Source: a phage. Taken from it: 64,000 nt of DNA. Where the stretch lies: sequence record PX393109.1; one strand, 5' to 3'. A program made the position numbers and the translations under genes. Shown here piece after piece: positions 3,343-53,428 of the stretch. The notes under the pieces were generated by a model. That model saw nothing but the letters and a program-made list of their open reading frames with translations. It had not been told where the DNA came from and searched no databases. Every line of letters starts with the position of its first letter. Position 1 is the stretch's first letter.

Positions 3343-3576
3343 ATGATCGTAGTTACTGAAGAGTATATTACCTCCCAGTCTAAGGCTGGTGGGAAGGCTG
3401 TTGGAAGAGTAGCAATAGCTAAACTAACCAATATGGGTTATGTTCCTAAGGACACTCCTAAGCCACCAGCACCATGGATATGGGAAAAGGAGAATGGCAG
3501 GATTATGGCTATTACCCAGTATATGGGGCCATTCAGACTCAAGATCGAATACTTAGTAGATCTGGAAGATTCGTAG
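3343..3576 (+). CDS. hypothetical protein
   Basis: 77-aa ORF. Confidence 0.45.
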   Translation: MIVVTEEYITSQSKAGGKAVGRVAIAKLTNMGYVPKDTPKPPAPWIWEKENGRIMAITQYMGPFRLKIEYLVDLEDS

Positions 3577-3577
3577 G

Positions 3578-3616
3578 CCGCTCTTTTTAGGTGCTGAAAG
3601 GCTGTTAAGGTGTCAG
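3578..3616 (+). promoter_or_regulatory. conserved intergenic motif copy 2
   Basis: GCCGCTCTTTTTAGGTGCTGAAAGGCTGTTAAGGTGTCA. Confidence 0.45.
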
Positions 3617-4184: not shown

Positions 4185-4439
4185 ATGTACTTTACTGATA
4201 ATATGATCGTAGGACTGATGATTGCTTATGTCATCGGTGGGATCATCGTTTATCCGATTGCTGCTTATGTTACTGGCAGATTCCGTATTAAGCATGGTGG
4301 CTACACAGTATTGGCTACGGTATTTTGGCCGTTAATCCCTTTCGTGATCGTGGCAGTTATCATAACTAAACTGGCCGAAATAGCTTGCACGAAAGGGTTC
4401 CACTACCTCCGCGATCTCGGTGAGAAACATGCCAATTAA
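4185..4439 (+). CDS. small membrane protein (two predicted TM helices)
   Basis: hydrophobic stretches IVGLMIAYVIGGIIVYPIAAYV and VLATVFWPLIPFVIVAVIITKL; AAGGAATAATT RBS. Confidence 0.5.
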   Translation: MYFTDNMIVGLMIAYVIGGIIVYPIAAYVTGRFRIKHGGYTVLATVFWPLIPFVIVAVIITKLAEIACTKGFHYLRDLGEKHAN

Positions 4440-4998
4440 TTTCAGTATGCAGAGTCTTGAAGACTTTGTACCAGAGCATGGTAAGAGCGTAGTAGTCTTC
4501 TACCACGAGCGATTCTATTCCCGAGTAGAAATGCTACAGATGCAAGTAGAGTTCCACTACCAGATGATAGATGGCGATGGCTGCCCAGTTCCTCAGTGGG
4601 CATGCTATGATAATCGTGACGACATACCGTTCGATAAGCCATTCATCTGGAAAGATAAGCAGGTTAAGTTCCTTACTCTGGACGACTGTATGGAAATACA
4701 TAATCGTCATCCCAAGCACCACTATCGTTACTGGTGGGTTAAGGACTGGTTCCTAACTGGCGGAGGAAATAGCCAGTTAAATAGGGAACAGCTGGCGGAG
4801 ATGTCGTTAGGGATTATGAGTGCCGAACAGTTTAGTGCTGAGCTGGATAAGGGATGTGCTGATCTGGAAGCCAAGCGTATCTTACGTGAATTAACTCGTG
4901 AATCCCGTACTGGATATTGTGAGAAGCATGGCACTCGTCAGCTGGGTAAGGACCTATGTGATGTGTGCCGTATTGAACGTGCATTTATGGAGGGATGA
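4429..4998 (+). CDS. hypothetical protein
   Basis: ORF track 4420..4998 (GTG); first ATG at 4429. Confidence 0.45.
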   Translation: MPINFSMQSLEDFVPEHGKSVVVFYHERFYSRVEMLQMQVEFHYQMIDGDGCPVPQWACYDNRDDIPFDKPFIWKDKQVKFLTLDDCMEIHNRHPKHHYRYWWVKDWFLTGGGNSQLNREQLAEMSLGIMSAEQFSAELDKGCADLEAKRILRELTRESRTGYCEKHGTRQLGKDLCDVCRIERAFMEG

Positions 4999-5654
4999 TG
5001 CGGATCTGGACCGACAAGAACTCTATTCTGGAGTTTATCGGAGAGTACCGATTCCTATCTAACTTTTATCCTGTTCCTATTGAGGATAAGAATCCTTACG
5101 GGAACGAGACTCTTCCCTCCCTTACTTACCCTAGTGTGGAGCATGCCTATCAAGCATCTAAGTCTCCATCACTAGCCCATCGTCTTATCATAGCTAGACT
5201 TCATACTCCTGGTGAGGCCAAGAGATATGGACGTAAGCTGCCCATTACTGAATCGTGGAAGGAACAGAGAGTAGATGTGATGGAACACCTACTCCGGATT
5301 AAATTCGCGAAAGGTGGGGAGCTAGCTCAAAAATTGACCGATACTTGGCCTAAGGAGCTGGTCGAAGGAAATACCCACGGAGATTCCTTCTGGGGTATGA
5401 CTCGTGAGGAGTACAAGTCCGTCCTCACTGGTATTAATATGCTCGGACGATTACTGATGAAACTTCGGGAGGAGTTAGTTATGGAACAAATGACCAAGGA
5501 GACAGGATCGTTTGCGGAGTGGCATAAACTGCTGCACCAATACGCTCAGTCTCGTGGCGGTAGCGCTGCTGATGCGGAAGCCTGGCGGGATGATTACGAT
5601 GAAGGTAAGACCCCTAAGCAGGCCTACGACGATGAGTGGGGCGAAGAAGACTAA
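4995..5654 (+). CDS. NADAR / YbiA-like N-glycosidase domain protein (candidate ADP-ribosylation reversal enzyme)
   Basis: FLSNFYP...PSVEHAYQASK...ESWKEQRVDVMEHLLRIKF...LVEGNTHGDSFWG aligns by eye with E. coli YbiA motifs (FSNFAAWP...SEHYFQAQK...LVEHTENDAYWGDG); acidic C-terminal tail. Confidence 0.75.
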   Translation: MMRIWTDKNSILEFIGEYRFLSNFYPVPIEDKNPYGNETLPSLTYPSVEHAYQASKSPSLAHRLIIARLHTPGEAKRYGRKLPITESWKEQRVDVMEHLLRIKFAKGGELAQKLTDTWPKELVEGNTHGDSFWGMTREEYKSVLTGINMLGRLLMKLREELVMEQMTKETGSFAEWHKLLHQYAQSRGGSAADAEAWRDDYDEGKTPKQAYDDEWGEED

Positions 5655-5662
5655 CCTATCTT

Positions 5663-5690
5663 AGCGCTCTTTAGGGAGCGCTATTTTTAT
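5663..5690 (+). terminator. rho-independent terminator after NADAR gene
   Basis: AGCGCTC/GAGCGCT 7-bp stem, 6-nt loop, followed by ATTTTTATTT. Confidence 0.55.
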
Positions 5691-5708
5691 TTAATGTTGG
5701 GAGTAATT

Positions 5709-5948
5709 ATGGAACAACCTATCCAAGCAGTAACTAATGCGGTTGGGAGCATGCAGATCGTGGGTTATGATACCTATGAGCAAGTAGCTCAATCAGTTAA
5801 ACTCGATCCTCGCAAGAAGCGTCGTGGTCATCGTCGAGCAGCTAAGAGTCTGCTTAGTAATGGTGGGGTCTTCAATAACTACTCTGCACCAGGAACTACA
5901 TTCTGGTGGGTCGCACAATGGCATCTTAAGAAGGCACGTAATGGCTGA
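5709..5948 (+). CDS. hypothetical protein
   Basis: ORF track 5694..5948; ATG at 5709 preceded by GGGAG RBS. Confidence 0.45.
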   Translation: MEQPIQAVTNAVGSMQIVGYDTYEQVAQSVKLDPRKKRRGHRRAAKSLLSNGGVFNNYSAPGTTFWWVAQWHLKKARNG

Positions 5949-6294
5949 AGATACTGGGATTCATGACGGACGCTGGGAAGATCGATATAACTCAGTACGA
6001 CAGGAATTAGACACTACTAAGGCTAATCTGAGTAAGGCTAGAGTAGAGAATGCTGAAAACCGAGCTATGCATCATCGTATTATTCAGATGGCTATTGATG
6101 ATGGCTGGACTGGTGATCATAATAGTAATGTTGAGGATGCAGTAAAATTCCTATCGGGTAGAGAGCGTAAAGTAACTACCCCTAAAATTCATTACACAGA
6201 TCATATCACAATAGGTAAGGCATCTCCAGTATATGATGCCGTTGAAGTAGATACATTATTAACCAGTCTAGGGTATACTGTGGATAAGGATTAA
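5941..6294 (+). CDS. hypothetical protein
   Basis: ATG at 5941 overlapping upstream stop (ATGGCTGA); ORF track lists 5824..6294. Confidence 0.45.
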   Translation: MAEDTGIHDGRWEDRYNSVRQELDTTKANLSKARVENAENRAMHHRIIQMAIDDGWTGDHNSNVEDAVKFLSGRERKVTTPKIHYTDHITIGKASPVYDAVEVDTLLTSLGYTVDKD

Positions 6295-6296
6295 TT

Positions 6297-6334
6297 CCGC
6301 CGTTTCTTACCCTCGAAAGGCTGTTAAATTGTTG
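6297..6334 (+). promoter_or_regulatory. conserved intergenic motif copy 3
   Basis: CCGCCGTTTCTTACCCTCGAAAGGCTGTTAAATTGTTG. Confidence 0.45.
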
Positions 6335-6358
6335 CACCTCAACTGATAAGGATAACCG

Positions 6359-7072
6359 ATGTCTACTAAGATGATGCCACACCATCTGGCTCCGAATAAA
6401 CTGTTTAACCGATTCCTGTCATATCACGACTCCTACCACTGCGCAATTGACATCGAGACCGAGTATCTCGATTTTAAAGAGCCTGGGGTAGTTCTATCTG
6501 TAGGTATGGTGACGGTTGGTCCTGATCACTACTCCCACGTCTACTTCACTATTGATCGAGAAGAGTCGCTGGCTCTGGGTATGAAGTCTGACCCTAACGT
6601 AGTTGAATGGCTCAACACTCTCCCGAAACCCGTCCGTGATGCTGCATATGCTAATCCAGTATCTGTTGACGAAGCTCTGGATATCATCGAAGAGTACGTA
6701 GCTAAGGTACTACAGGATCCTGGTTGCCAGATGTTGAACTTCATCGGTAACGCACCAGAGTTCGACCAGGGATTCCTGGATTGGTACTTTAAGGCTAAAG
6801 GACGTAAGACCCCGTTCCTACACTGGATGAATCGAGATTACCGCACTCTGGCTAGTCTGCAGCTGATCTCATTCGATGATCGTCGCATGATTAAAGAAGA
6901 ACTGAGTAGCCAGCACGAGTCTATGTCTGATCACCATGCATTGTTCGATGCGATGCTGGAAGCTAAGACTTGGGTTCGCACCATCAATCGTGTAAAAGAG
7001 TTACAGGATCTGGAGCACGAGGTGAATACCATGATTGCTATGCAGGGTAACTCTGTGGAAGATGGAGAGTAA
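6359..7072 (+). CDS. DEDDh-type 3'-5' exonuclease (DnaQ/RNase T-like)
   Basis: Exo I-like CAIDIETEY, later NAPEFDQGFL, C-terminal HHALFDAMLEA (H-x4-D motif III). Confidence 0.6.
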   Translation: MSTKMMPHHLAPNKLFNRFLSYHDSYHCAIDIETEYLDFKEPGVVLSVGMVTVGPDHYSHVYFTIDREESLALGMKSDPNVVEWLNTLPKPVRDAAYANPVSVDEALDIIEEYVAKVLQDPGCQMLNFIGNAPEFDQGFLDWYFKAKGRKTPFLHWMNRDYRTLASLQLISFDDRRMIKEELSSQHESMSDHHALFDAMLEAKTWVRTINRVKELQDLEHEVNTMIAMQGNSVEDGE

Positions 7073-7385
7073 GCTTTGTCGGGTGGTTAATATACGTACC
7101 AATCCTAACTACGATTTATATGTTGGGAGAGGTACTATATTCGGGAATAAGTGGAGCCATAAAGATTTACCTAACGCTATTAACGTAGGTTCCCGAACAT
7201 TAGCCATCGCGAAATACAGACTATGGTTCCACCAGCAAGTAAAAGATGGCCACATAAGCATCTCCTACTTACGGACTCTTAAGGGTAAGACTTTAGGGTG
7301 CTCCTGCTTACCGTTACCATGTCATGCTCAAGTTATAGCTGACTTCGTTAATTCATTACCTGACGAAGATTCCGCTCTTTCGTAG
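7062..7385 (+). CDS. DUF4326-like protein (CxC...PCH motif)
   Basis: YVGRG...GNKW...LGCSCLPLPCHAQVIADF resembles the DUF4326 signature; family assignment from memory. Confidence 0.4.
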   Translation: MESKLCRVVNIRTNPNYDLYVGRGTIFGNKWSHKDLPNAINVGSRTLAIAKYRLWFHQQVKDGHISISYLRTLKGKTLGCSCLPLPCHAQVIADFVNSLPDEDSALS

Positions 7386-7410
7386 CCTCCAAAGGCTGTT
7401 AAACTGTTGG
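7372..7410 (+). promoter_or_regulatory. conserved intergenic motif copy 4
   Basis: CCGCTCTTTCGTAGCCTCCAAAGGCTGTTAAACTGTTGG; 22 nt before ATG 7424. Confidence 0.5.
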
Positions 7411-7423
7411 AAAGGAAATCTCT

Positions 7424-7648
7424 ATGCAATCACGTCGTATTGGTTTGTTAAGCGGTATCGGTATGGTTCTGGCTGGATTAGGTCATATGTGGCCCACCCC
7501 AGCAGTGTCTGCTAAAGGCTATGACGGATTCCGTCGCGCCTGTACCAAGGTAAGCTGCCCTAAGACTACTACAGCATCTGCATTAAAGCGTGCGGCTAAG
7601 AAGGCTAAAGGCCGTAAGGTTAATAAGCAACGTCACAAGGGTAAATAA
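7424..7648 (+). CDS. small basic protein with N-terminal hydrophobic segment
   Basis: 74-aa ORF, GLLSGIGMVLAGLG then lysine-rich tail. Confidence 0.45.
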   Translation: MQSRRIGLLSGIGMVLAGLGHMWPTPAVSAKGYDGFRRACTKVSCPKTTTASALKRAAKKAKGRKVNKQRHKGK

Positions 7649-8028
7649 TGTCTCATATGACCCGAGAAGAAATCGTATTGATGGTGGCTAAGGTGTGTCA
7701 CGAAGCTAATCGTGCATACTGCCATTCTATCGGAGACTTCACCCAATTAAGCTGGGAAGCAACATCCGATGAAATAAAACAGTCGGCTATTGATGGAGCG
7801 TATAACTGCTTACACAATAACCGTATCAGCCCAGAAGAGTCCCATGAATTCTGGGTTAAAACTAAAAAGGAGCAGGGCTGGAAGTATGGAGAAATCAAAG
7901 ATCTCGCAGCTAAGACGCACCCGTGTATGGTTCCATATTCACGGTTGCCGGAAGAGCATCGAGTCAAAGATCACCTCTTCACCAGCATCTGCGCAGCATT
8001 CATTAAACAGTACAAAAGGGCATCATGA
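7648..8028 (+). CDS. RyR-domain protein
   Basis: [43 protein letters not shown] matches the RyR domain core (W..GW.YG......HP.LVPY..L). Confidence 0.55.
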
Positions 8029-8495
8029 TGACCGTAGTTCAAGTAAAGAAAACTATTAACTGGGACGACTCTCTGGAGTTACCGAAATACGCTAAAGCTG
8101 GTGATGCTGGTCTTGATCTTCGTGCGATGATTAAGACTGACGAAATCGATAAAATCGCTGTAAATCCTGGCGAAACTATCCTGGTCCCTACCGGTCTAGC
8201 GATCAACATCGGCGATCCGAACATCGCTTCTGTGATTCTTCCCCGCAGCGGCCTCGGCCATAAAAATGGCATCGTACTGGGTAACTTGGTTGGTCTTATC
8301 GACTCCGGCTATCAAGGAGAACTGATGGTGTCTGTGTGGAACCGTAGTAACGAATCTTTCGTTATTAACCACGGCGACCGTATCGCTCAAATGGTGTTTC
8401 TTCCCGTTATCCATCCAGAGCTCCAGCTTGTGGATAAATTCTCTGATGTTTCTGAACGTGGCGACGGTGGGTTTGGCCATTCCGGGATTAAGTAA
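8025..8495 (+). CDS. dut: dUTP diphosphatase
   Basis: [55 protein letters not shown]: all five dUTPase motifs in order. Confidence 0.85.
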
Positions 8496-8526: not shown

Positions 8527-8550
8527 TTGACCTCTTTGCGGAGAGGTCAA
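8527..8550 (+). promoter_or_regulatory. perfect 9-bp inverted repeat (operator- or terminator-like hairpin)
   Basis: TTGACCTCT-TTGCGG-AGAGGTCAA between dut and the next gene; no T-run. Confidence 0.35.
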
Positions 8551-8577
8551 TGTTATTCTACCATAGAACCGAGGAAT

Positions 8578-8781
8578 ATGATGGATATTGAGCAACTAAC
8601 TAAGGATCTTAATCGTAACCAGATTACGGTTATTCGTTCGGAGCACTTAGCTCCCAAGACTATGATCGTGTCTGATGATATCTGGGGCACATTCAAGAAT
8701 AATAATAATAATAATAATAATAATGCTACTGTAGAAGCTACAGATGAAGAATCTGTTAAGAACATGCTGGAGCATCCGTAA
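8578..8781 (+). CDS. small protein with poly-Asn tract
   Basis: ORF track 8527..8781 (TTG start lies inside the hairpin); ATG at 8578 after GAGGAAT; 9 consecutive Asn encoded by (AAT)9. Confidence 0.45.
   Translation: MMDIEQLTKDLNRNQITVIRSEHLAPKTMIVSDDIWGTFKNNNNNNNNNATVEATDEESVKNMLEHP
8698..8724 (+). repeat. (AAT)9 trinucleotide microsatellite inside a CDS
   Basis: 27 nt of perfect AAT repeats, in frame. Confidence 0.9.
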
Positions 8782-9404
8782 TGATCCTTGGTAAATCTTA
8801 TATTGAGCAGGCAATTACTCAAGGATTATGGACCTATCACAGTTATCTGGACAATCAGGAACCACGAATCGGACAGAATAGTGTAGATGTACGCTTAGCT
8901 CCGTTCTTCCTGGTTCCTCAAAAGATGCCTGATGGCCATGTAGTAGATCCCTATAAACCATGTACTCTTCCGGAGTATCGCGAGGTAGAGGCACTATACT
9001 ACGATCTTAAACCTGGGGAGTTCATCTTAGGCTCAGCATCTGAACGTATCGACTGTACTACCATGTTGCCTGAGAAGTGGTTCGAGCATTATGACCCACG
9101 ATACCGTAACAGCACTGTAGACCGTGGTGTGGCATTCTGTCAGCATTACGACGGTCGCAGCACTATGGGTCGTCTGGGAATACTGAGCCATGTCAGTGCA
9201 GGTTTCGGGGACTTTGGATTCAAGGGAGCATTTACTCTAGAGATTGTTAACCTAAGCCCTAACACTATCCGACTGCGTTCTAACATGCGCATCGGTCAGA
9301 TTTACTTTACTGAGGTTGCTGGTGGTGGCTACGACCTTTACAAAGGTTACGACCAGACTGACTTTAAACCAGTCGCACCAATCATAGGTCGCGATCGTTT
9401 CTAA
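8781..9404 (+). CDS. dCTP deaminase-like protein (dUTPase superfamily)
   Basis: VDVRLAPFF, GSASERIDCT, RSTMGRLGI, GFGDFGFKGAFTLEIVN, MRIGQIYF resemble Dcd motifs; adjacent to dut. Confidence 0.55.
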   Translation: MILGKSYIEQAITQGLWTYHSYLDNQEPRIGQNSVDVRLAPFFLVPQKMPDGHVVDPYKPCTLPEYREVEALYYDLKPGEFILGSASERIDCTTMLPEKWFEHYDPRYRNSTVDRGVAFCQHYDGRSTMGRLGILSHVSAGFGDFGFKGAFTLEIVNLSPNTIRLRSNMRIGQIYFTEVAGGGYDLYKGYDQTDFKPVAPIIGRDRF

Positions 9405-9825: not shown

Positions 9826-10188
9826 ATGACTTCTGCCGATTGCGTAGCTATGGTCGTCTACTATGAGGCCAGGGGAGAGTCGGAACGTGGGCAGTTAGCT
9901 GTAGCCCACGTGGTACTCAACCGAGCGAAGAAATACGGTATAAGCCCATGTAAGGTAGTTAAAAACAGGAATACCTTTCCGTGGTACCGTCACATCTCTT
10001 ACCAGAATATGAAAGATCCTAAATCTAAGGCATCTGCTATTCATATTGCGGCAAGAGTTAAATACAGTGAAGATCCCACATTCGGGGCTACTCACTTTCA
10101 TAATGTAAAGGTTAGGCCTAACTGGAAGGGCTATAGAATGACAGCCAGAATAGGCGACCACAAGTTCTATAAGAAGGTAAAGAAATGA
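9826..10188 (+). CDS. SleB/CwlJ-like cell-wall hydrolase domain protein
   Basis: YYEARGESERGQLAVAHVVLNR is the hallmark N-terminal motif of the Hydrolase_2 (SleB) family. Confidence 0.55.
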   Translation: MTSADCVAMVVYYEARGESERGQLAVAHVVLNRAKKYGISPCKVVKNRNTFPWYRHISYQNMKDPKSKASAIHIAARVKYSEDPTFGATHFHNVKVRPNWKGYRMTARIGDHKFYKKVKK

Positions 10189-18327: not shown

Positions 18328-20949
18328 TTAAACTGTCTTAAAGGCTGGCGTATCTACGGAAGTTAATACTGCGCCATCAGGAACGTTAGACTGAAGTGCT
18401 GGGTACACATCAAAGTAATAATTACCACCATTGACATAACCACTGCGGACGATAGTACCGACGTAATCAGCGCCATCCGCACCACCACCTCCTGCTATTT
18501 TAACCTTACATCCGGCAGTCTTATAATACTGGCCAGTCCAGTTAAGGTTAGTCTTAGAGCGAATAGAGTTAGATCCAGAAGTAGCGGCAGCGACAGTTTC
18601 GTTGGAGTAGAACAGAGCTCCAGGAGCAGTCACAGTAAACATAGTTCCGTCACTAGCAACAATAGTGTCGCCAGCCAGCAGAGCCATGCCATAAGGAGTA
18701 CCGGTCTTGGTATGGTAAATCACACCGTTCTGACGCCATGCTGGAGTACCACGGTAATGAGTCGCGGTAGTGGTCTTCTGAATAGGGAAGTTACAATCAG
18801 AGACCTCCAGAGTATCCACCGTGATGTTCTGGACAGTAACGTTAGCCGCACCGGTATTAGGATCAAGGCATTTCATGTTGGAGATGTTAGCAACCATCCA
18901 CTTGTTACGGCGGTAGTTATCTCGAGCATCACCAGACGTGTATCGGAAGTCGAGAATGATTTTCTCAGCTGACCAGTCCGAGAGACGATACTCGGATGCC
19001 ATACCCTGGAGAGATATGGTGGTAGCTTTGATATTCTTCATCTCGACAGTAGAGTTCAGAGTATCGGTAGTACATACCTCAACATGAACAGTACCAGTGA
19101 TATTTACGTTACGAATACGGATATTACGATGAGCGAAGGTATAGGCATTACTCACTGTACCCCACAGGAAGCGAATCATTTCCTCAGTACCATTAACTGG
19201 GGAGCCGATTACGCCATCCACATCGATATCCTTACAACCGTAGGCGATAAGGCCTCCAGTATCCAGACCTACACCAGTTGACTTATTGGCATCTGGGTAA
19301 ATCTCGATGTCTCGGATAGTGATGTTGCGGCATTTCTCCATATGGATACACTGCTTAGCACCCTTAACCTTAACGTTACTGATTACCACGTCTGACATAT
19401 ACTCGGAATCTGGAGCAGTCAGAGAGTAGTTACCAGTACCAGCCAGACCAATTGCAATACCCCAGTTGGCGTTACCAGTGCTAGTTGCGTCGACATTATC
19501 TACAGTGATGTTATCGATTCTGGTATTGGTATCTGCTACTGCCAGGTTAATCTCAATAGGGTCGCTCTTCATGTCGAAGAACTGCAAGTTCTGCAGCAGA
19601 GTCGCAGTGAGCGGCTTGGAGGATGCAGGACTACCCTGACGGAGGTAACCATAATTACAGCGACGCATAATACCGTTAGTGACGAACAGCTGGCTATTAG
19701 CCGCTAATTGCTGACACAGCAGAGCAGCAGTCGCAGAACAGTCATTAATCTCGAACTGGTCGAGTTTAAAAATACCGTTTATGTGACGAATACCGCATTT
19801 GCTAAGGTTCAGCTTAGTTATGTCAGTATCACCATTAACCAGCAGCTGTGAACTAGCACCGGTACCAACTATGGTTAGGTTCTCGATCACTACACCGGAG
19901 ATATCCACCGATTGGTTAGCGATCTTGTAAGTACCCATACCCATAAGCTTAAGACCATAAGTCTTAGCCAGAGTAACAGCGGAGCGAAGAGCTGCTGTAT
20001 CGTCCGTAGTACCGTCGCCTTTAGCTCGAGCCATTTCTGGGGTGATGTATCGAATACCATCAGCCACCGTGCCACCATATCTCAGATAGACAATAGCAGC
20101 ACCAGTAGTTTCGCCAGCAGTCATGAGCTCTGACTTAAGAGCACCAGAACCTACAGGAATCCACTTACCAGTCCCCTGTTCAGACTGAGATGGCTCCGGA
20201 TCTCCATAATTAACAACTTTAGGAAGAACACCATCCCATTTATAATACTCCCCATTTACTGAGAAGCTTACAGTCTGGACTCGGGTAGTGAGAGTCAGGC
20301 TCTGACCTTCAGACAGATCAGTAAGTTTATAATTAACGAAACCTACTTTTTCTGAGATCTCTCTGGTAAGGCTATCGATGCGATCCTGGGTAACGCTAAG
20401 AGCATCACGAGAGTTCAGCTCGGCAGTCACCAGGACGCCCTTCGACAGCTTAATCTTAGTAAGAGTGATCTTGCGACTAATAACATCGATAGTGTAATCT
20501 TCTACGCGAGTAAGGCGGACACCACCTACGAATAGACGTACGCTGGTAAAGGAATAAGGAATATTAAACTCGAATTCCCCATCCTCCTGTACCTCGTAAC
20601 TCCACTCGATACCGCTCTGTACTCCTCCAGTCCAGTAGGATTCTTCGTAGAAGTTACCAGTAGTGGTAAACGGTACAGGACCAGTCCAGTAGTACAGCAG
20701 ATTATCATATCTGACATACTGGCGGTCGTTCTCGATCACCATTCCGGAGGCATAGTTACCGAGGATATACATAGACTGACCAGCAGTCTGTTGCAACTCG
20801 TTAACGTTGCCTATTGTTTCGGCAAGAGTCTCGTCTAATACTTTCTGCTGATTTTCTAACTCTCGAATATCGAGAGTCTGGTTATCATGCTGATAAGTAT
20901 TAAGAGGAGCTCCGCCTAGTTCGCTAAATAACTTAGAACGACCGCCCAT
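18328..20949 (-). CDS. tailspike with pectate-lyase-like right-handed beta-helix (putative polysaccharide depolymerase)
   Basis: KGDGTTDDTAALRSAV (pectate lyase 3-type motif), repetitive beta-helix-like body, N-terminal YKWDGVLPK adaptor motif. Confidence 0.7.
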   Translation of the reverse strand: MGGRSKLFSELGGAPLNTYQHDNQTLDIRELENQQKVLDETLAETIGNVNELQQTAGQSMYILGNYASGMVIENDRQYVRYDNLLYYWTGPVPFTTTGNFYEESYWTGGVQSGIEWSYEVQEDGEFEFNIPYSFTSVRLFVGGVRLTRVEDYTIDVISRKITLTKIKLSKGVLVTAELNSRDALSVTQDRIDSLTREISEKVGFVNYKLTDLSEGQSLTLTTRVQTVSFSVNGEYYKWDGVLPKVVNYGDPEPSQSEQGTGKWIPVGSGALKSELMTAGETTGAAIVYLRYGGTVADGIRYITPEMARAKGDGTTDDTAALRSAVTLAKTYGLKLMGMGTYKIANQSVDISGVVIENLTIVGTGASSQLLVNGDTDITKLNLSKCGIRHINGIFKLDQFEINDCSATAALLCQQLAANSQLFVTNGIMRRCNYGYLRQGSPASSKPLTATLLQNLQFFDMKSDPIEINLAVADTNTRIDNITVDNVDATSTGNANWGIAIGLAGTGNYSLTAPDSEYMSDVVISNVKVKGAKQCIHMEKCRNITIRDIEIYPDANKSTGVGLDTGGLIAYGCKDIDVDGVIGSPVNGTEEMIRFLWGTVSNAYTFAHRNIRIRNVNITGTVHVEVCTTDTLNSTVEMKNIKATTISLQGMASEYRLSDWSAEKIILDFRYTSGDARDNYRRNKWMVANISNMKCLDPNTGAANVTVQNITVDTLEVSDCNFPIQKTTTATHYRGTPAWRQNGVIYHTKTGTPYGMALLAGDTIVASDGTMFTVTAPGALFYSNETVAAATSGSNSIRSKTNLNWTGQYYKTAGCKVKIAGGGGADGADYVGTIVRSGYVNGGNYYFDVYPALQSNVPDGAVLTSVDTPAFKTV

Positions 20950-21073: not shown

Positions 21074-24061
21074 TTACTGCTTCTTTTCAAGATCGGAAAG
21101 TCTGGCTTCGATTCTTTCCAGTCTTCTTCTCTGGAATGCTGCCTCAGCAAAGAAAATTCCATCAGGTCTCACTCCCCACTCCTCACCCTCTTCGTGAATA
21201 ACCACCTCGGTGTATACAGGCTCTTCCGTGGTAGTGACATTACCCTCCTCGTCAGTATGTTCAACGACTTCATAGTGAGAGAATACCATGTCTGTCATGC
21301 GAGGATATTTGTCGTAACACAGAACAGCATATCGGCAATCCGTGCTGTCCTCATCCATCAGACCGTGAGCAATGAATACATCACGGATCTGCTGAGCAAT
21401 TACGCCAAAATGGATTCTAGCTTCATTCCCTTTTAGGTGTACAGAATCCAACCACTGGTACATAATGTAATGAACGTCTCCCCAAGCATCTAAAAAAGCA
21501 TCATCAAAAACTACCGGCTCTGTTTTCTTCTCTCCGTTAGAAGTAACAATAGGGTTGCTTCCGAGGTATGCAGTGGTGAAACGGTTGCTAGGACCACCAA
21601 GCGCAATGACGTTATCGTTATAAGGCTTAACATCAGCACTCCGAAACAGGTGCTCATCTCCGTTGTAAACTATCCTGCGAGAAGCTGTGTTACTCGCACC
21701 GTAAAGCGTAATCTGTGCACCAGTAGAAGAACTGGTGCCGTCTCCTCCGCAAAATATGATACGCTGTCCTGCGGGGTTATTAGTCGGTACAGATTTCCCG
21801 ATAAACCCATACTCACCCTCCATTAAAACTTCAGAGCGAATGTTACTACTGGTGCTGGCTCTAATGACCACATGACCTAAACCCAAATCCCCTGTAAATT
21901 CCATTGGCGCAGGAACAGTGCGAGTTCCATTCGTATCAAAAAACACTGGAACCGCTCTGTCAGGTACAGCACCATACCTGAAATCACGAGAAACGCGATT
22001 GTCTGGACCGATTTTCATTTTGTAACAATACAAATCTGAGGGATGACCGTCTGATTTGAATGGGTCCTTCTCTAAGTTATCTCCATACGTCCATGGGTTC
22101 AGATGGTCTTCCCCACCGAACATGTAATAGATATAACTATCTTTCACGACAACCGATCCGACACCGACTCCAGAGTTAACAATACCACCCTGATAAATCT
22201 GATCAGAGATGTTTACCCACTGAGTATTATCCAAGTTCCAGGTGTCGAGGTTCACTCGCGTGTAGAACGTTCGTGGGTAAGAACTGAAATATCGTTGATC
22301 CGGTGCGTTTGCTTCCCACTCGTTGTCTGCGCGTTCAGTACCGAAAAGAATCAGTTCGTTTCCTACCTTAGCGAATGGCAGGGTAGAGTGGTGTACGTTA
22401 TTCGGAAACCTCAGCGATTGCCAGGTAATCCCCAGGTCGTTACTGCGATGAAGAGAACTACCAAGACGATCAGACCTGGTTCCACGGGTTACAACATAAA
22501 GAACACCGTCAAAATACTTAACGCAGGGTTCTGACGCATCTGGCTCATATTCAGCAGGAATACGTCGTTTCTGGTAAAGACCAGGATTGTTGAACGCATC
22601 AGGGAAATACAACATACCTACTTCACGCGGAGCAACATCACCCTGGTGGTACCCCATCATGAATGAGTCGTTATTGATGGCGGTAAAACTATGAACCTCG
22701 GTAACCATAGGGATCAATCCAAGACTGGTTTTACGCCATGGTGACTGATGGAACGATGTCCCCATATGCCAGCGGTTGGTAGAGTTATTTTGGTCGAATG
22801 CTTGTTGATTTGGTGTGGTAACTGTGAACGTGTTGCGGTCAATAACTGAAGTTACAGTCATATTCCCAGAAACTCCAGTCACCCCAGAGTTTGAGAAGTT
22901 AACAAAATCCCCAGCAAAAAGACCGTGTTCGGGGATGGTAATTACAGCCACAGACTGGTTGGCCGCTTTTGTTATACCACCTGTCAGATGGTAGTTACGG
23001 GACATGGGGCGATCCCACAACTCACAGGTCACTAATGCGTTAGCTGCTAAAGTACGGGTCTCAATCATCGCAAAGAGACGATTACGCATCACTCCCATAC
23101 TCATACAGTGGTAGTTAACTGTTGGGTAATTAGGGTGTAGGTCAGTTAGCCACTCCGGGGTCGTCCAGGTCTGCCCGTCATCTCCTGAGCGAACCCAGGA
23201 TACATGAAGCCTGCTAACCCCGTGCCGATCGCTAGCCATGAACGGACAGTAAATAACATCGTCGTAAACGAACGCTTTATCCTGAGGCCAAGCATTGTAA
23301 TAAGGGGTATCGGTTATTTTAATTAACTCGCCCTGAACAAACTCGTCAGACACATAATAAAGCGGCTGGCCAGGAATACGCTCATAAACGAAACGAGTGT
23401 TGACGAATCTGCTAATATCTGGAAGCGCGGATACTTTATAGGTTCTACCGTTACCATTAATTTTCTGACCTACTGGAGCAGCGCTTAACAGATTATTAAG
23501 AGCCACAGTATCATCGACTAATCCATCACCTTTAGCTCCCCAACCACGAGGGTCGAAAATGTCACGCCATCGAGCAATCTGCAATTCGGGGTATTTTGTT
23601 GCACCATCCGGGTCTGATATTTGCCCTCGCAGTGCGGTATCACCAATACTAGCCCAAGCATCAGAAGAGACACCACCAGTAGTTAGCGGTGATGAGTTAG
23701 CATATACAGTTTTAGGGAACACACCACCCCACACGTAGCACTGGCCACCATCAATATGCCAGACAGCATCCTTTTTACTGTTTACTGTAGCACCTTCTTC
23801 AAAAGTGCCAACAAGAGTTAGTCCTAAGTCACCTAGTAATAACTTCCACTGTTCTTTAGTATTATTAATTATCGATAAATTAGACTTTTTTAAAATGGAG
23901 GTTCTAGTAGCTAATTGGGTTATTGGATGATTAATATGTCCGGATACTGGTTCATCCTTAGAATTAGTAACTAGTTGACCGCCTTCTGCCCTATCCGTCT
24001 TTTCTAAGCGGCGAATAGTCTCGGGCCAAGTTGACCCTTCTACAATTGGATTATAAGACAT
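21074..24061 (-). CDS. tailspike with Asp-box repeats and C-terminal S74 intramolecular chaperone domain (endosialidase-like)
   Basis: GAKGDGLVDDTVAL; two Asp-boxes SGDDGQTWT and SNDLGITWQ; C-terminal TSNGEKK...IHFGVIAQQIRDV...YDKY resembles Peptidase_S74 autoproteolytic chaperone. Confidence 0.7.
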   Translation of the reverse strand: MSYNPIVEGSTWPETIRRLEKTDRAEGGQLVTNSKDEPVSGHINHPITQLATRTSILKKSNLSIINNTKEQWKLLLGDLGLTLVGTFEEGATVNSKKDAVWHIDGGQCYVWGGVFPKTVYANSSPLTTGGVSSDAWASIGDTALRGQISDPDGATKYPELQIARWRDIFDPRGWGAKGDGLVDDTVALNNLLSAAPVGQKINGNGRTYKVSALPDISRFVNTRFVYERIPGQPLYYVSDEFVQGELIKITDTPYYNAWPQDKAFVYDDVIYCPFMASDRHGVSRLHVSWVRSGDDGQTWTTPEWLTDLHPNYPTVNYHCMSMGVMRNRLFAMIETRTLAANALVTCELWDRPMSRNYHLTGGITKAANQSVAVITIPEHGLFAGDFVNFSNSGVTGVSGNMTVTSVIDRNTFTVTTPNQQAFDQNNSTNRWHMGTSFHQSPWRKTSLGLIPMVTEVHSFTAINNDSFMMGYHQGDVAPREVGMLYFPDAFNNPGLYQKRRIPAEYEPDASEPCVKYFDGVLYVVTRGTRSDRLGSSLHRSNDLGITWQSLRFPNNVHHSTLPFAKVGNELILFGTERADNEWEANAPDQRYFSSYPRTFYTRVNLDTWNLDNTQWVNISDQIYQGGIVNSGVGVGSVVVKDSYIYYMFGGEDHLNPWTYGDNLEKDPFKSDGHPSDLYCYKMKIGPDNRVSRDFRYGAVPDRAVPVFFDTNGTRTVPAPMEFTGDLGLGHVVIRASTSSNIRSEVLMEGEYGFIGKSVPTNNPAGQRIIFCGGDGTSSSTGAQITLYGASNTASRRIVYNGDEHLFRSADVKPYNDNVIALGGPSNRFTTAYLGSNPIVTSNGEKKTEPVVFDDAFLDAWGDVHYIMYQWLDSVHLKGNEARIHFGVIAQQIRDVFIAHGLMDEDSTDCRYAVLCYDKYPRMTDMVFSHYEVVEHTDEEGNVTTTEEPVYTEVVIHEEGEEWGVRPDGIFFAEAAFQRRRLERIEARLSDLEKKQ

Positions 24062-52592: not shown

Positions 52593-52934
52593 ATGAAAAC
52601 TGCTGATATCATTACGTTCCTGGGTAACCTATCTTCCCTATATAATAAGGTAGGAGACAATCGTCGTGCTGGGTCATTCGCGAGAGCATCCCAGTCTATT
52701 CAACTTCACGTTAAGATCCCCGAAGTTAAGGATTTGTCGCAACTCGGCAAGTTACCTAACGTCGGCGGGTCGACCATCAACGAATTAATCGAGATGGATA
52801 CTAAAGGGACTACCGATCGTATGGAGTCCCTGAAGAAACAGCTCGAAGAAGATGGTCCGCAGGATACTTCTGCTAAACTGGCTAACGCATTGGCTTTAGT
52901 TAAGGCTAAGCAGGCCAAGATAGAGAAGAAGTAA
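52593..52934 (+). CDS. hypothetical protein
   Basis: ORF track 52578..52934; ATG at 52593 with GGAGG RBS 8 nt upstream; motif copy just upstream. Confidence 0.5.
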   Translation: MKTADIITFLGNLSSLYNKVGDNRRAGSFARASQSIQLHVKIPEVKDLSQLGKLPNVGGSTINELIEMDTKGTTDRMESLKKQLEEDGPQDTSAKLANALALVKAKQAKIEKK

Positions 52935-53428
52935 TGTTTATGTTCGTCACTGGTCATAGGCCAGATAAACTGGGTGGCTGGGATATCTTTAGCCATGATC
53001 AGCTTACCCAGTTTGCCGAACATCATATCCAGAGGTTGACCGAAGAAAATAAGGTCGACTGCTGGTTCGTGGGTATGGCTTTAGGATGGGACATGGCATG
53101 TGCTCAAGCATGTGCTAACCTCGGAATACCATATTTCGCAGCAGTCCCTATGATTGACCAGCCCAAGATGTGGCGATCTGCAGATGTAGAAAAATGGACT
53201 GAGCTCTGCAGGAGAAGTCGTCGCACAATTATAGTTTCCGAGCCTGGGTATGATTCTTTCAAGATGATGGTGCGTAACCGTTACATGGTTAACCGTAGTC
53301 AGAAGGGATTAGCCTTATGGGATGGCAGCAAGGGTGGTACAGGTAACTGTGTAACCCATGCTAAATCTCTGGGTAAGGAAGTAATTAATGTATGGGAAGA
53401 TTATGTCAAAATCACAGGATCTCCTTAA
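52934..53428 (+). CDS. SLOG-superfamily protein, YpsA/DUF1273-like
   Basis: VTGHRPDKLGGWDIF / FVGMALGWDMACAQAC / AVPMIDQPKMW / LALWDGSKGGTGN parallel the B. subtilis YpsA blocks (recalled from memory). Confidence 0.5.
   Translation: MFMFVTGHRPDKLGGWDIFSHDQLTQFAEHHIQRLTEENKVDCWFVGMALGWDMACAQACANLGIPYFAAVPMIDQPKMWRSADVEKWTELCRRSRRTIIVSEPGYDSFKMMVRNRYMVNRSQKGLALWDGSKGGTGNCVTHAKSLGKEVINVWEDYVKITGSP

Follow-up and report, generated by a model that had tools for sequence, protein, structure and literature searches.

T4 gp30.3 (AdfN) strips ADP-ribose from DarT1-modified DNA and allows T-even phages to grow on DarTG1 hosts (PMC11257639). Two further, unrelated NADARs, that of the T5-like phages Bas32 and Bas33 and that of Bas60-62, likewise neutralise DarT1 and rescue DarTG1-sensitive phages (PMC11257639, Johannesman et al.). 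NADAR-Bas32 rescues three such phages, ectopic expression alone is sufficient, so this counter-defence is partner-free, and neither NADAR-Bas32 nor the Bas60-62 NADARs rescue phages that are blocked by DarTG2 (PMC11257639). At the enzymatic level, all NADAR families tested remove ADP-ribose from guanine (PMC11125620, PMC11543638), including E. coli YbiA, which hydrolyses guanine-ADP-ribose in vitro and does not counter DarT1 in vivo (PMC11125620). The present work deals with the NADAR gene found at 4995-5654 in a stretch of 64,000 nucleotides of phage DNA (sequence record PX393109.1). This whole stretch, hereafter the window, represents 64 kb of a genome of roughly 111-116 kb. An original prediction, made from the sequence, had grouped this gene with a DEDDh exonuclease gene and a DUF4326-like gene further downstream as one anti-defence cluster. 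We favour another reading, to which we give a probability of about 0.6: the phage uses its orphan NADAR as a DarG1-like DNA de-ADP-ribosylase against DarT1, the exonuclease-DUF4326 pair forms a separate unit, and the three genes do not make up one operon.

The NADAR gene and its closest relatives

The gene and its two parts are as follows.

4995-5654, plus strand: open reading frame (ORF) of 219 amino acids (aa), NADAR family (Pfam PF08719)
4995-5480, plus strand: NADAR domain, residues 1-162, predicted guanine-N2 ADP-ribosyl DNA glycohydrolase
5481-5654, plus strand: C-terminal acidic three-helix domain of 57 aa, residues 163-219, phrog_519, fused in frame

That this ORF encodes a NADAR, as the original prediction had it, is borne out by its match to PF08719 (E 7.9e-27, 94.9 bits against a cutoff of 35.1). 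All columns that are invariant in a 31-sequence NADAR alignment are conserved in it, including those of E49, K56, E124, D130 and W133, and its W88 falls in a column that is nearly invariant. Alignment to the Phytophthora NADAR (PnNADAR, PDB 8BAU) equates E49, K56, E124, D130 and W133 with E43, K50, E125, D130 and W133, and R80, W88 and R92 with R79, W89 and R93; R80 and R92 are assigned from this pairwise alignment only. In PnNADAR the set E43/K50/R79/W89/R93/E125/D130/W133 coordinates the distal ribose and the pyrophosphate, and mutagenesis showed that the equivalents of these residues are required for hydrolysis of guanine-ADP-ribose (PMC11543638). The AlphaFold model (AF2, 38 sequences) reaches a predicted local distance difference test score (pLDDT) of about 90, and more than 90 across most of the domain, whose core begins around residue 10. 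In Foldseek this model significantly matches only two PDB entries, 2B3W (YbiA) and 8BAU (Phytophthora NADAR), with a probability of 1.00. Glu124 assigns the protein to the Glu-type NADAR/YbiA families, that is, neither to the His-type "phage NADAR" of T4 gp30.3 nor to the Asp-type DarG1. A BLASTP comparison with T4 gp30.3 gave no significant similarity, the PF08010 profile did not match, and PADLOC returned a weak match to PDC-M42C. Judged by its residues, the window protein is a catalytically intact NADAR.

By DNA comparison the window belongs to the IME392/EP_H11 group of E. coli myoviruses: over 4400-7700 it matches vB_EcoM_IME392 at 95.7% and EP_H11 at 92.6%. The NADAR ORF is intact in EP_H11 and in the window phage; that of IME392 carries an in-frame TAA at the codon of window K156 (about 5460; locus L003, 5912-6570), so that the last helix of its NADAR would lack its end and with it the nearly invariant R158. 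Either a sequencing error accounts for this stop or the allele is a natural loss-of-function one; the stop recalls the truncated, inactive AdfN of RB69.

Outside its own clade, T5-like phages are among those that carry the nearest relatives of the window NADAR (tblastn against a phage collection, about 43-44% identity), and the NADARs of a few phages of other hosts reach identities of up to 49%. One of the T5-like matches, Escherichia phage IrisVonRoten bas32_0066, is NADAR-Bas32 itself, which is the closest experimentally tested relative. By BLASTP the window NADAR shares 44% identity with it over 154 aa (98.6 bits), and 34% with E. coli YbiA (70.5 bits). The gene is an orphan: neither 72 other ORFs of the window nor the upstream gene gave an ART-family match. 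Macro and Nudix domains, sought along with ART domains as marks of a possible NADAR-regulated gene, were equally absent from these 72 ORFs.

The YbiA relationship raises the question of whether the protein might be a metabolite-repair N-glycosidase that acts on riboflavin-pathway intermediates and plays no role in defence. YbiA is the best PDB match in both sequence and fold, relatives of the window NADAR are commonly labelled 'ribA/ribD-fused' or 'GTP cyclohydrolase II', and the NCBIfam model TIGR02464 ("riboflavin intermediates N-glycosidase") scores the protein at 73.5 bits for a cutoff of 73.7. Placement in the riboflavin branch, which the original prediction had named as a possible refutation, is not decisive; it is in fact uninformative, because the active NADAR-Bas32 matches the same model (66.3 bits) and because YbiA itself hydrolyses guanine-ADP-ribose (PMC11125620). 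In addition, the window NADAR is closer to the DarT1-neutralising Bas32 protein than to YbiA, no riboflavin gene was found among 72 other ORFs of the window, and riboflavin damage control would be of no obvious use to a lytic phage. We therefore regard a riboflavin-related function as extremely improbable.

It seems reasonable to propose the following sequence of events for the orphan de-ADP-ribosylase. Upon infection of a DarTG1 host, DarT1 would be released and would ADP-ribosylate the N2 of guanine in phage single-stranded DNA, which would stall replication. The phage NADAR would then act as an orphan DarG1-like antitoxin: K56, R80, W88 and R92 would hold the phosphates of the bound ADP-ribose and E49 and E124 its distal ribose, the N-glycosidic bond would be hydrolysed, guanine would be restored and replication could proceed. 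The fused 57-aa domain would be an add-on, possibly also translated on its own, and the exonuclease and DUF4326 genes of the third unit, behind the promoter-like motif at 6316, would form a separate, translationally coupled pair. Activity on guanine-ADP-ribose is very likely, and an in vivo role against DarTG1 is likely. This role is one that we infer, because YbiA hydrolyses guanine-ADP-ribose and yet gives no protection against DarT1 in vivo. What the original prediction had said about a counter-defence against DarTG finds support in the intact active site and in the homology to the DarT1-neutralising Bas32 protein. The support is that of homology, and the idea of an anti-DarTG1 phage NADAR had already been published for AdfN and for the NADARs of Bas32 and Bas60.

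Transcription units and the exonuclease-DUF4326 pair

The arrangement of the three genes depends on the following elements.

3575-3615, plus strand: promoter-like motif cCGCTCTTTT-N10-AAAGGCTGTTAAGGTGT, which opens the unit ending in NADAR
5662-5692, plus strand: intrinsic terminator, directly 3' of the NADAR stop
6294-6334, plus strand: promoter-like motif 5' of the exonuclease gene, kept in EP_H11 and IME392
6359-7072, plus strand: DEDDh 3'-5' exonuclease (Rv2179c-like / RNase T-like), 237 aa
7062-7385, plus strand: DUF4326 protein (T4 NrdA.1 homologue), 107 aa
7369-7409, plus strand: promoter-like motif, which opens the next unit (small ORF, RyR-domain protein, dUTPase)

The terminator starts 8 nt after the NADAR stop and consists of a 9-bp GC-rich stem with a loop of 4 (5662-5683) followed by TTTTTATTTA. 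Its folding energy is -14.1 kcal/mol (z -3.74), a value equalled by none of 200 shuffles, and its sequence is identical in EP_H11 and IME392. The original prediction was right about its existence and mistaken about its place in the cluster: instead of standing at the end of the three genes, the terminator splits the group after NADAR. The second kind of signal is the motif AAAGGCTGTTAAAnTGT, present in 13 copies, all on the plus strand (2200, 3597, 6316, 7391, 52562, 53908, 54515, 54573, 54755, 55987, 57452, 58442 and 63649), for 0.54 expected by chance. The full form reads cCGCTCTTTT-N10-AAAGGCTGTTAAAnTGT, with CCGCTCTTTT about 10 nt 5' of AAAGGCTGTTAAAnTGT. All copies are confined to the strand of the early/middle genes; the TGnTAAAnT core resembles an extended -10 element, and the motif is probably the phage's own class of early/middle promoter.

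These signals predict one unit that runs from the motif at 3597 through five small genes and NADAR to the terminator at 5662-5692, and another that runs from the motif at 6316 through the exonuclease and DUF4326 genes, with the next motif at 7391. Between 3597 and 6316 no other copy occurs. The copy at 3597 is kept in the same place in EP_H11, IME392 and a metagenomic relative (L012), and the terminator and motifs as a whole are placed alike in EP_H11 and IME392 and partly so in two metagenomic relatives. In terms of predicted signals, the three genes are not co-transcribed as one unit. The motif was also considered as a marker of accessory genes, in line with the accessory early module that the original prediction had deduced from motif-driven units. 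This use was rejected, since the copy at 58442 precedes helicase genes; a motif found in front of replication genes is uninformative on accessory status.

The other two protein identifications of the original prediction stand. The exonuclease matches PF16473 (Rv2179c-like 3'-5' exoribonuclease; E 9.8e-19, 68.2 bits against a cutoff of 27), its residues D31, E33, D136, H192 and D197 align to the DEDDh set of RNase T, and PHROGs agrees (phrog_255, exonuclease); PADLOC gave only a weak, generic DEDDh match. The phage database holds just 36 matches, and outside the clade none of them exceeds 28% identity. In the Acinetobacter phage Ab1-TPeters the exonuclease gene is syntenic with homologues of the cell-wall hydrolase (42%) and of the dCTP-deaminase-like (DCD-like) protein (46%), and within 8 kb of it there is no NADAR and no DUF4326. 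The exonuclease gene therefore belongs to the backbone of a wider lineage, where it probably serves nucleic-acid turnover or processing. A literature search on phage Rv2179c-like exonucleases gave nothing relevant.

The DUF4326 protein, which the original prediction had recognised from its CxC...PCH pattern, matches PF14216 (E 2.5e-17, 63.7 bits against a cutoff of 25), in agreement with PHROGs, and T4 NrdA.1 (BLASTP, 39.6% identity, E 2e-23). Its start is likely the ATG at 7062, as annotated in EP_H11, in preference to the TTG at 7035. R23, N29, C80, C82, P84, C87 and H88 are invariant across 38 viral homologues, the last five as a C80xC82xP84xxC87H88 motif. The last 11 nt of the exonuclease gene are also the first of the DUF4326 gene, an arrangement kept in EP_H11 and in a metagenomic relative (L011, DUF4326 81% identical), so that the two genes appear as a translationally coupled pair bounded by the motifs at 6316 and 7391. 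Just 3' of DUF4326 lie dUTPase and DCD-like genes. The single-sequence AF2 model of DUF4326 is unusable (pLDDT 36.5; the protein homologue search gave 2 matches), and neither sequence nor profile search found a relative in the PDB. Iyer et al. predict that DUF4326 belongs to the rhodanese-phosphatase superfamily (PMC9503650), and fusions of DUF4326 to NADAR, Macro and SLOG domains have been reported (PMC9503650, PMC7824862). Along the lines of that prediction, the protein may be an accessory enzyme that processes ribose-phosphate or ADP-ribose breakdown products, and there is a small chance that the exonuclease-DUF4326 pair completes a clean-up pathway for ADP-ribose or modified DNA. As a side observation, a gene just 3' of DUF4326 on the same strand (7648-8028) encodes a RyR-domain protein (PF02026, E 5.8e-13); in unrelated viruses, 3 of 80 loci have a strong homologue no more than 10 kb away from NADAR, a frequency similar to that of DUF4326.

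The comparative distribution of the three genes was assessed by hidden Markov model scans of two sets of 80 IMG/VR loci, one centred on NADAR homologues and the other on DUF4326 homologues. DUF4326 lies within 10 kb of NADAR in 4/80 of the former, and NADAR within 10 kb of DUF4326 in 5/80 of the latter, for chance expectations of about 1 and about 0.5 (2015 DUF4326 and 719 NADAR places in a phage database of 2.3 Gb). The association of these two families is therefore real but weak. Around DUF4326, NrdA (19/80) and Frd (25/80) are nearby more often than NADAR. The exonuclease is absent from all 160 loci (0/80 in each set), and three distant exonuclease loci contain neither NADAR nor DUF4326, which with Ab1-TPeters makes 0/4.

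It could be supposed that the three proteins cooperate as one anti-DarTG module in which, for instance, NADAR removes the ADP-ribose, the exonuclease trims DNA ends that are damaged or modified and DUF4326 disposes of the ADP-ribose set free. The three genes do lie within 2.4 kb on one strand, their order is kept in EP_H11 and IME392, NADAR and DUF4326 occur within 10 kb of each other in 9 of the 160 loci, among them an overlapping pair (L168), and the reported domain fusions connect DUF4326 with NADAR. Against this, a terminator stands between NADAR and the exonuclease and each unit has a promoter motif of its own; outside the clade the exonuclease is never found with NADAR or DUF4326, and in Ab1-TPeters it occurs without both; and known phage NADARs need no partner (PMC11257639). 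We consider a single module decidedly improbable. The three-gene cluster of the original prediction is thus not upheld, and the link of the exonuclease-DUF4326 pair to NADAR is at most loose.

The window also encodes a third domain of relevance, a SLOG protein of 164 aa at 52934-53428 on the plus strand (YspA SLOG family PF06908, E 8.5e-07, 29.5 bits against a cutoff of 27.7), which in addition has a weak DprA-like match. NADAR, DUF4326 and SLOG are the three domains that Iyer et al. linked in ADP-ribose processing; here their genes are dispersed, the SLOG gene being 48 kb away from the NADAR gene. This opens the way to a different view of the enzyme, as part of a dispersed toolkit in which NADAR acts mainly on other ADP-ribose conjugates such as soluble ADP-ribose-derived immune signals or toxins, ADP-ribosylated RNA, or cytidine. 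Such a role was predicted for phage NADARs by Iyer et al. (PMC9503650), and genes for all three domains of their network are present in this phage. The activity of the Glu-type NADAR and YbiA families extends to the removal of ADP-ribose from cytidine and from RNA guanine, and in several viral loci DUF4326 adjoins SLOG, a weak Macro match below the cutoff, or NADAR. However, the closest tested relative acts on DNA against DarT1 (PMC11257639), no NADAR has been shown to cleave signals of the cyclic ADP-ribose (cADPR) type in the literature consulted, and the three genes are far apart in different transcription units. On balance, we find it unlikely that other conjugates are the main substrate.

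Several observations weigh against the orphan anti-DarT1 enzyme that we favour. In one assay E. coli YbiA and T4 gp30.3 gave no rescue of DarT1 toxicity (PMC11125620), protection in vivo is not universal among NADARs, and AdfN-T4 is context-specific (PMC11257639). An identity of 44% does not guarantee the same specificity as that of the Bas32 NADAR, and the window protein has a borderline score on the YbiA/TIGR02464 model, two insertions (residues 31-43 and 136-145) and a C-terminal fusion. Read-through of the terminator would co-transcribe the units. Finally, three unrelated IMG/VR contigs provide independent cases of the neighbourhoods described by Iyer et al. (PMC9503650, PMC7824862): NADAR and DUF4326 genes overlap in L168 (9544-10246), L076 (13729-14410) has overlapping DUF4326 and SLOG (YAcAr) genes with a PNKP-type phosphatase as neighbour, and in L113 (9580-13610) DUF4326 is flanked by NADAR genes, with a weak Macro-like match, below the Pfam cutoff, between it and the second NADAR. 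Given these pairings and the SLOG gene of the phage, a functional tie between NADAR and DUF4326 is possible.

The C-terminal domain and the surrounding genes

The C-terminal fusion is the sole unusual and new feature of the locus. Residues 163-219 lie outside the NADAR fold, match phrog_519 (E 1.6e-19) and are modelled as three helices with modest confidence (pLDDT 57-71). Their homologues are highly conserved standalone proteins of 52-109 aa from enterobacterial prophages that share an invariant RGGSAADAEAWRDDY core and are encoded directly 3' of Ead/Ea22-like genes in lambdoid and P22-like prophages. Small genes of the phrog_519 kind also occur in Salmonella, Escherichia and Klebsiella phages of about 155 kb, and the domain is found as a standalone small protein in Ackermannviridae. 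A profile search of 1.84 billion representative proteins returned 61 matches, nearly all of them short, and zero genuine fusions; a match of 127 aa is a gene call over-extended upstream, and one of 4322 aa looks spurious and is of low complexity. Neither the domain nor its standalone homologues matched Pfam in permissive scans, and sequence and profile searches found no relative in the PDB.

Besides the window, EP_H11 and a metagenomic protein (P0020) show the fusion to NADAR, which is therefore not a sequencing error. A strong Shine-Dalgarno-like GGGAGGAG stands six bases 5' of an internal ATG at 5481 (M163; 5467-5483), so that a separate product of 57 aa, about the length of the standalone proteins, may also be translated. 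The stop of IME392 falls just 5' of the domain and separates it from NADAR. It is tempting to speculate that the fusion is functional and targets the de-ADP-ribosylase to DarT1, to single-stranded DNA or to the replisome, or that the domain is an independent anti-defence factor. We hold this to be rather improbable; if true, either reading would provide a first function, in ADP-ribosylation conflict, for a widespread orphan family of prophage proteins. The fusion is in any case a lead on this uncharacterised small protein family.

The remaining genes to which we refer are listed below.

4420-4998, plus strand: gene of 192 aa, whose stop overlaps the NADAR start (ATGATG)
5709-5948, plus strand: basic ORF of 79 aa, annotated in EP_H11
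5941-6294, plus strand: ORF of 117 aa, annotated in EP_H11
8025-8495 and 8781-9404, plus strand: dUTPase and a second dCTP-deaminase-like (DCD-fold) protein, adjoining
9826-10188: cell-wall hydrolase, syntenic, as is the DCD-like gene, with Acinetobacter phage Ab1-TPeters
between 12 and 52 kb, minus strand: tail sheath, baseplate and tailspike genes
58-62 kb, plus strand: helicase genes

The 192-aa gene and NADAR form the same overlapping pair in the metagenomic relative L012, whose NADAR is 71% identical, and homologues of the 192-aa gene occur in coliphages of about 150 kb. This gene was considered as the true partner of NADAR and rejected: it has no informative family match (a weak DUF5662 match below the cutoff only) and is absent from the 80 other NADAR loci. 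In EP_H11, a deletion of 4 nt (TTCC) relative to the window and IME392 joins a small membrane-protein ORF (4185-4439) and the 192-aa gene into one ORF of 269 aa (L001, 5788-6597). Two small ORFs lie between the NADAR and exonuclease genes. The first, of 79 aa, had no match in Pfam, PHROGs, NCBIfam or PADLOC and was absent from the 160 sampled loci, and the second, of 117 aa, had no significant family match; permissive Pfam scans of both and of the small ORF at 7424-7648 gave nothing meaningful. Further downstream, the ORF at 8527-8781 contains an AAT trinucleotide run (8695-8718) that encodes eight asparagines in a row, possibly a slippage-prone tract.

On the minus strand, where spikes are encoded at 21074-24061 and by three other ORFs, the tailspike set includes an endosialidase-type spike (End_beta_propel, E 2e-204), four proteins with the Tail_spike_N domain and a spike resembling colanic-acid-degrading proteins (18328-20949). 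The phage is a multi-tailspike myovirus and probably targets K1 and other capsules.

Comparison with known systems

Current understanding is unchanged by this locus, whose central idea is already in print. If the role of its NADAR is confirmed, the IME392-like myoviruses would become a third unrelated lineage of E. coli phages with an orphan NADAR against DarTG1, which would reinforce the view of DNA ADP-ribosylation as a common pressure on coliphages. IME392, with its premature stop, and EP_H11 or the window phage, with an intact gene, offer a natural test pair. The separate NADAR, DUF4326 and SLOG genes also provide a compact system for the predicted ADP-ribose-processing network.

As for the downstream pair, the exonuclease shares all five DEDDh residues with RNase T and Rv2179c-like enzymes, while no characterised enzyme is more than distantly similar to it (about 20-28% identity) and its C-terminal 30 residues are specific to the clade. 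The DUF4326 protein has the length of T4 NrdA.1, the same GRxxxxGN...CxCxPxxCH motifs and a similar position amid nucleotide-metabolism genes; the T4 gene overlaps nrdA, whereas that of the window overlaps the DEDDh exonuclease gene.

Regarding the NADAR itself, E. coli YbiA (PDB 2B3W) has the same Glu-type active site at 34% identity and is the best structural match, with a template modelling (TM) score of 0.72 on the target; ybiA is a chromosomal gene of a LexA-controlled operon and gives no protection against DarT1 in vivo. The DarG1 antitoxins (E. coli C7; G. lovleyi, PDB 8BAT) reverse the guanine-N2 ADP-ribosylation made by DarT1, as predicted here for the phage enzyme. They have Asp at the position equivalent to E125, an N-terminal DNA-channel extension and darT alongside; the window NADAR has Glu, and neither the extension nor a DarT, and 8BAT was recovered by neither sequence nor fold search. 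AdfN (T4 gp30.3, PF08010) is an orphan like the window NADAR and likewise has its Glu and Lys seven residues apart (E36/K43 in T4, E49/K56 in the window). It is a DNA ADP-ribosylglycohydrolase that counters DarTG1 in the manner of an antitoxin, as predicted for the window NADAR, but T4-type NADARs carry His in place of E124, and AdfN-T4 is specific to T-even DNA. The NADAR of Bas32 differs from that of the window in several respects: the latter has the 57-aa C-terminal domain and the insertions at 31-43 and 136-145, and it comes from an unrelated myovirus, the neighbours of the Bas32 gene being RNase H and nucleotide-synthesis genes. Both are nevertheless standalone Glu-type NADARs of E. coli phages that share their catalytic residues, score just under the TIGR02464 cutoff and have no adjoining DarT.

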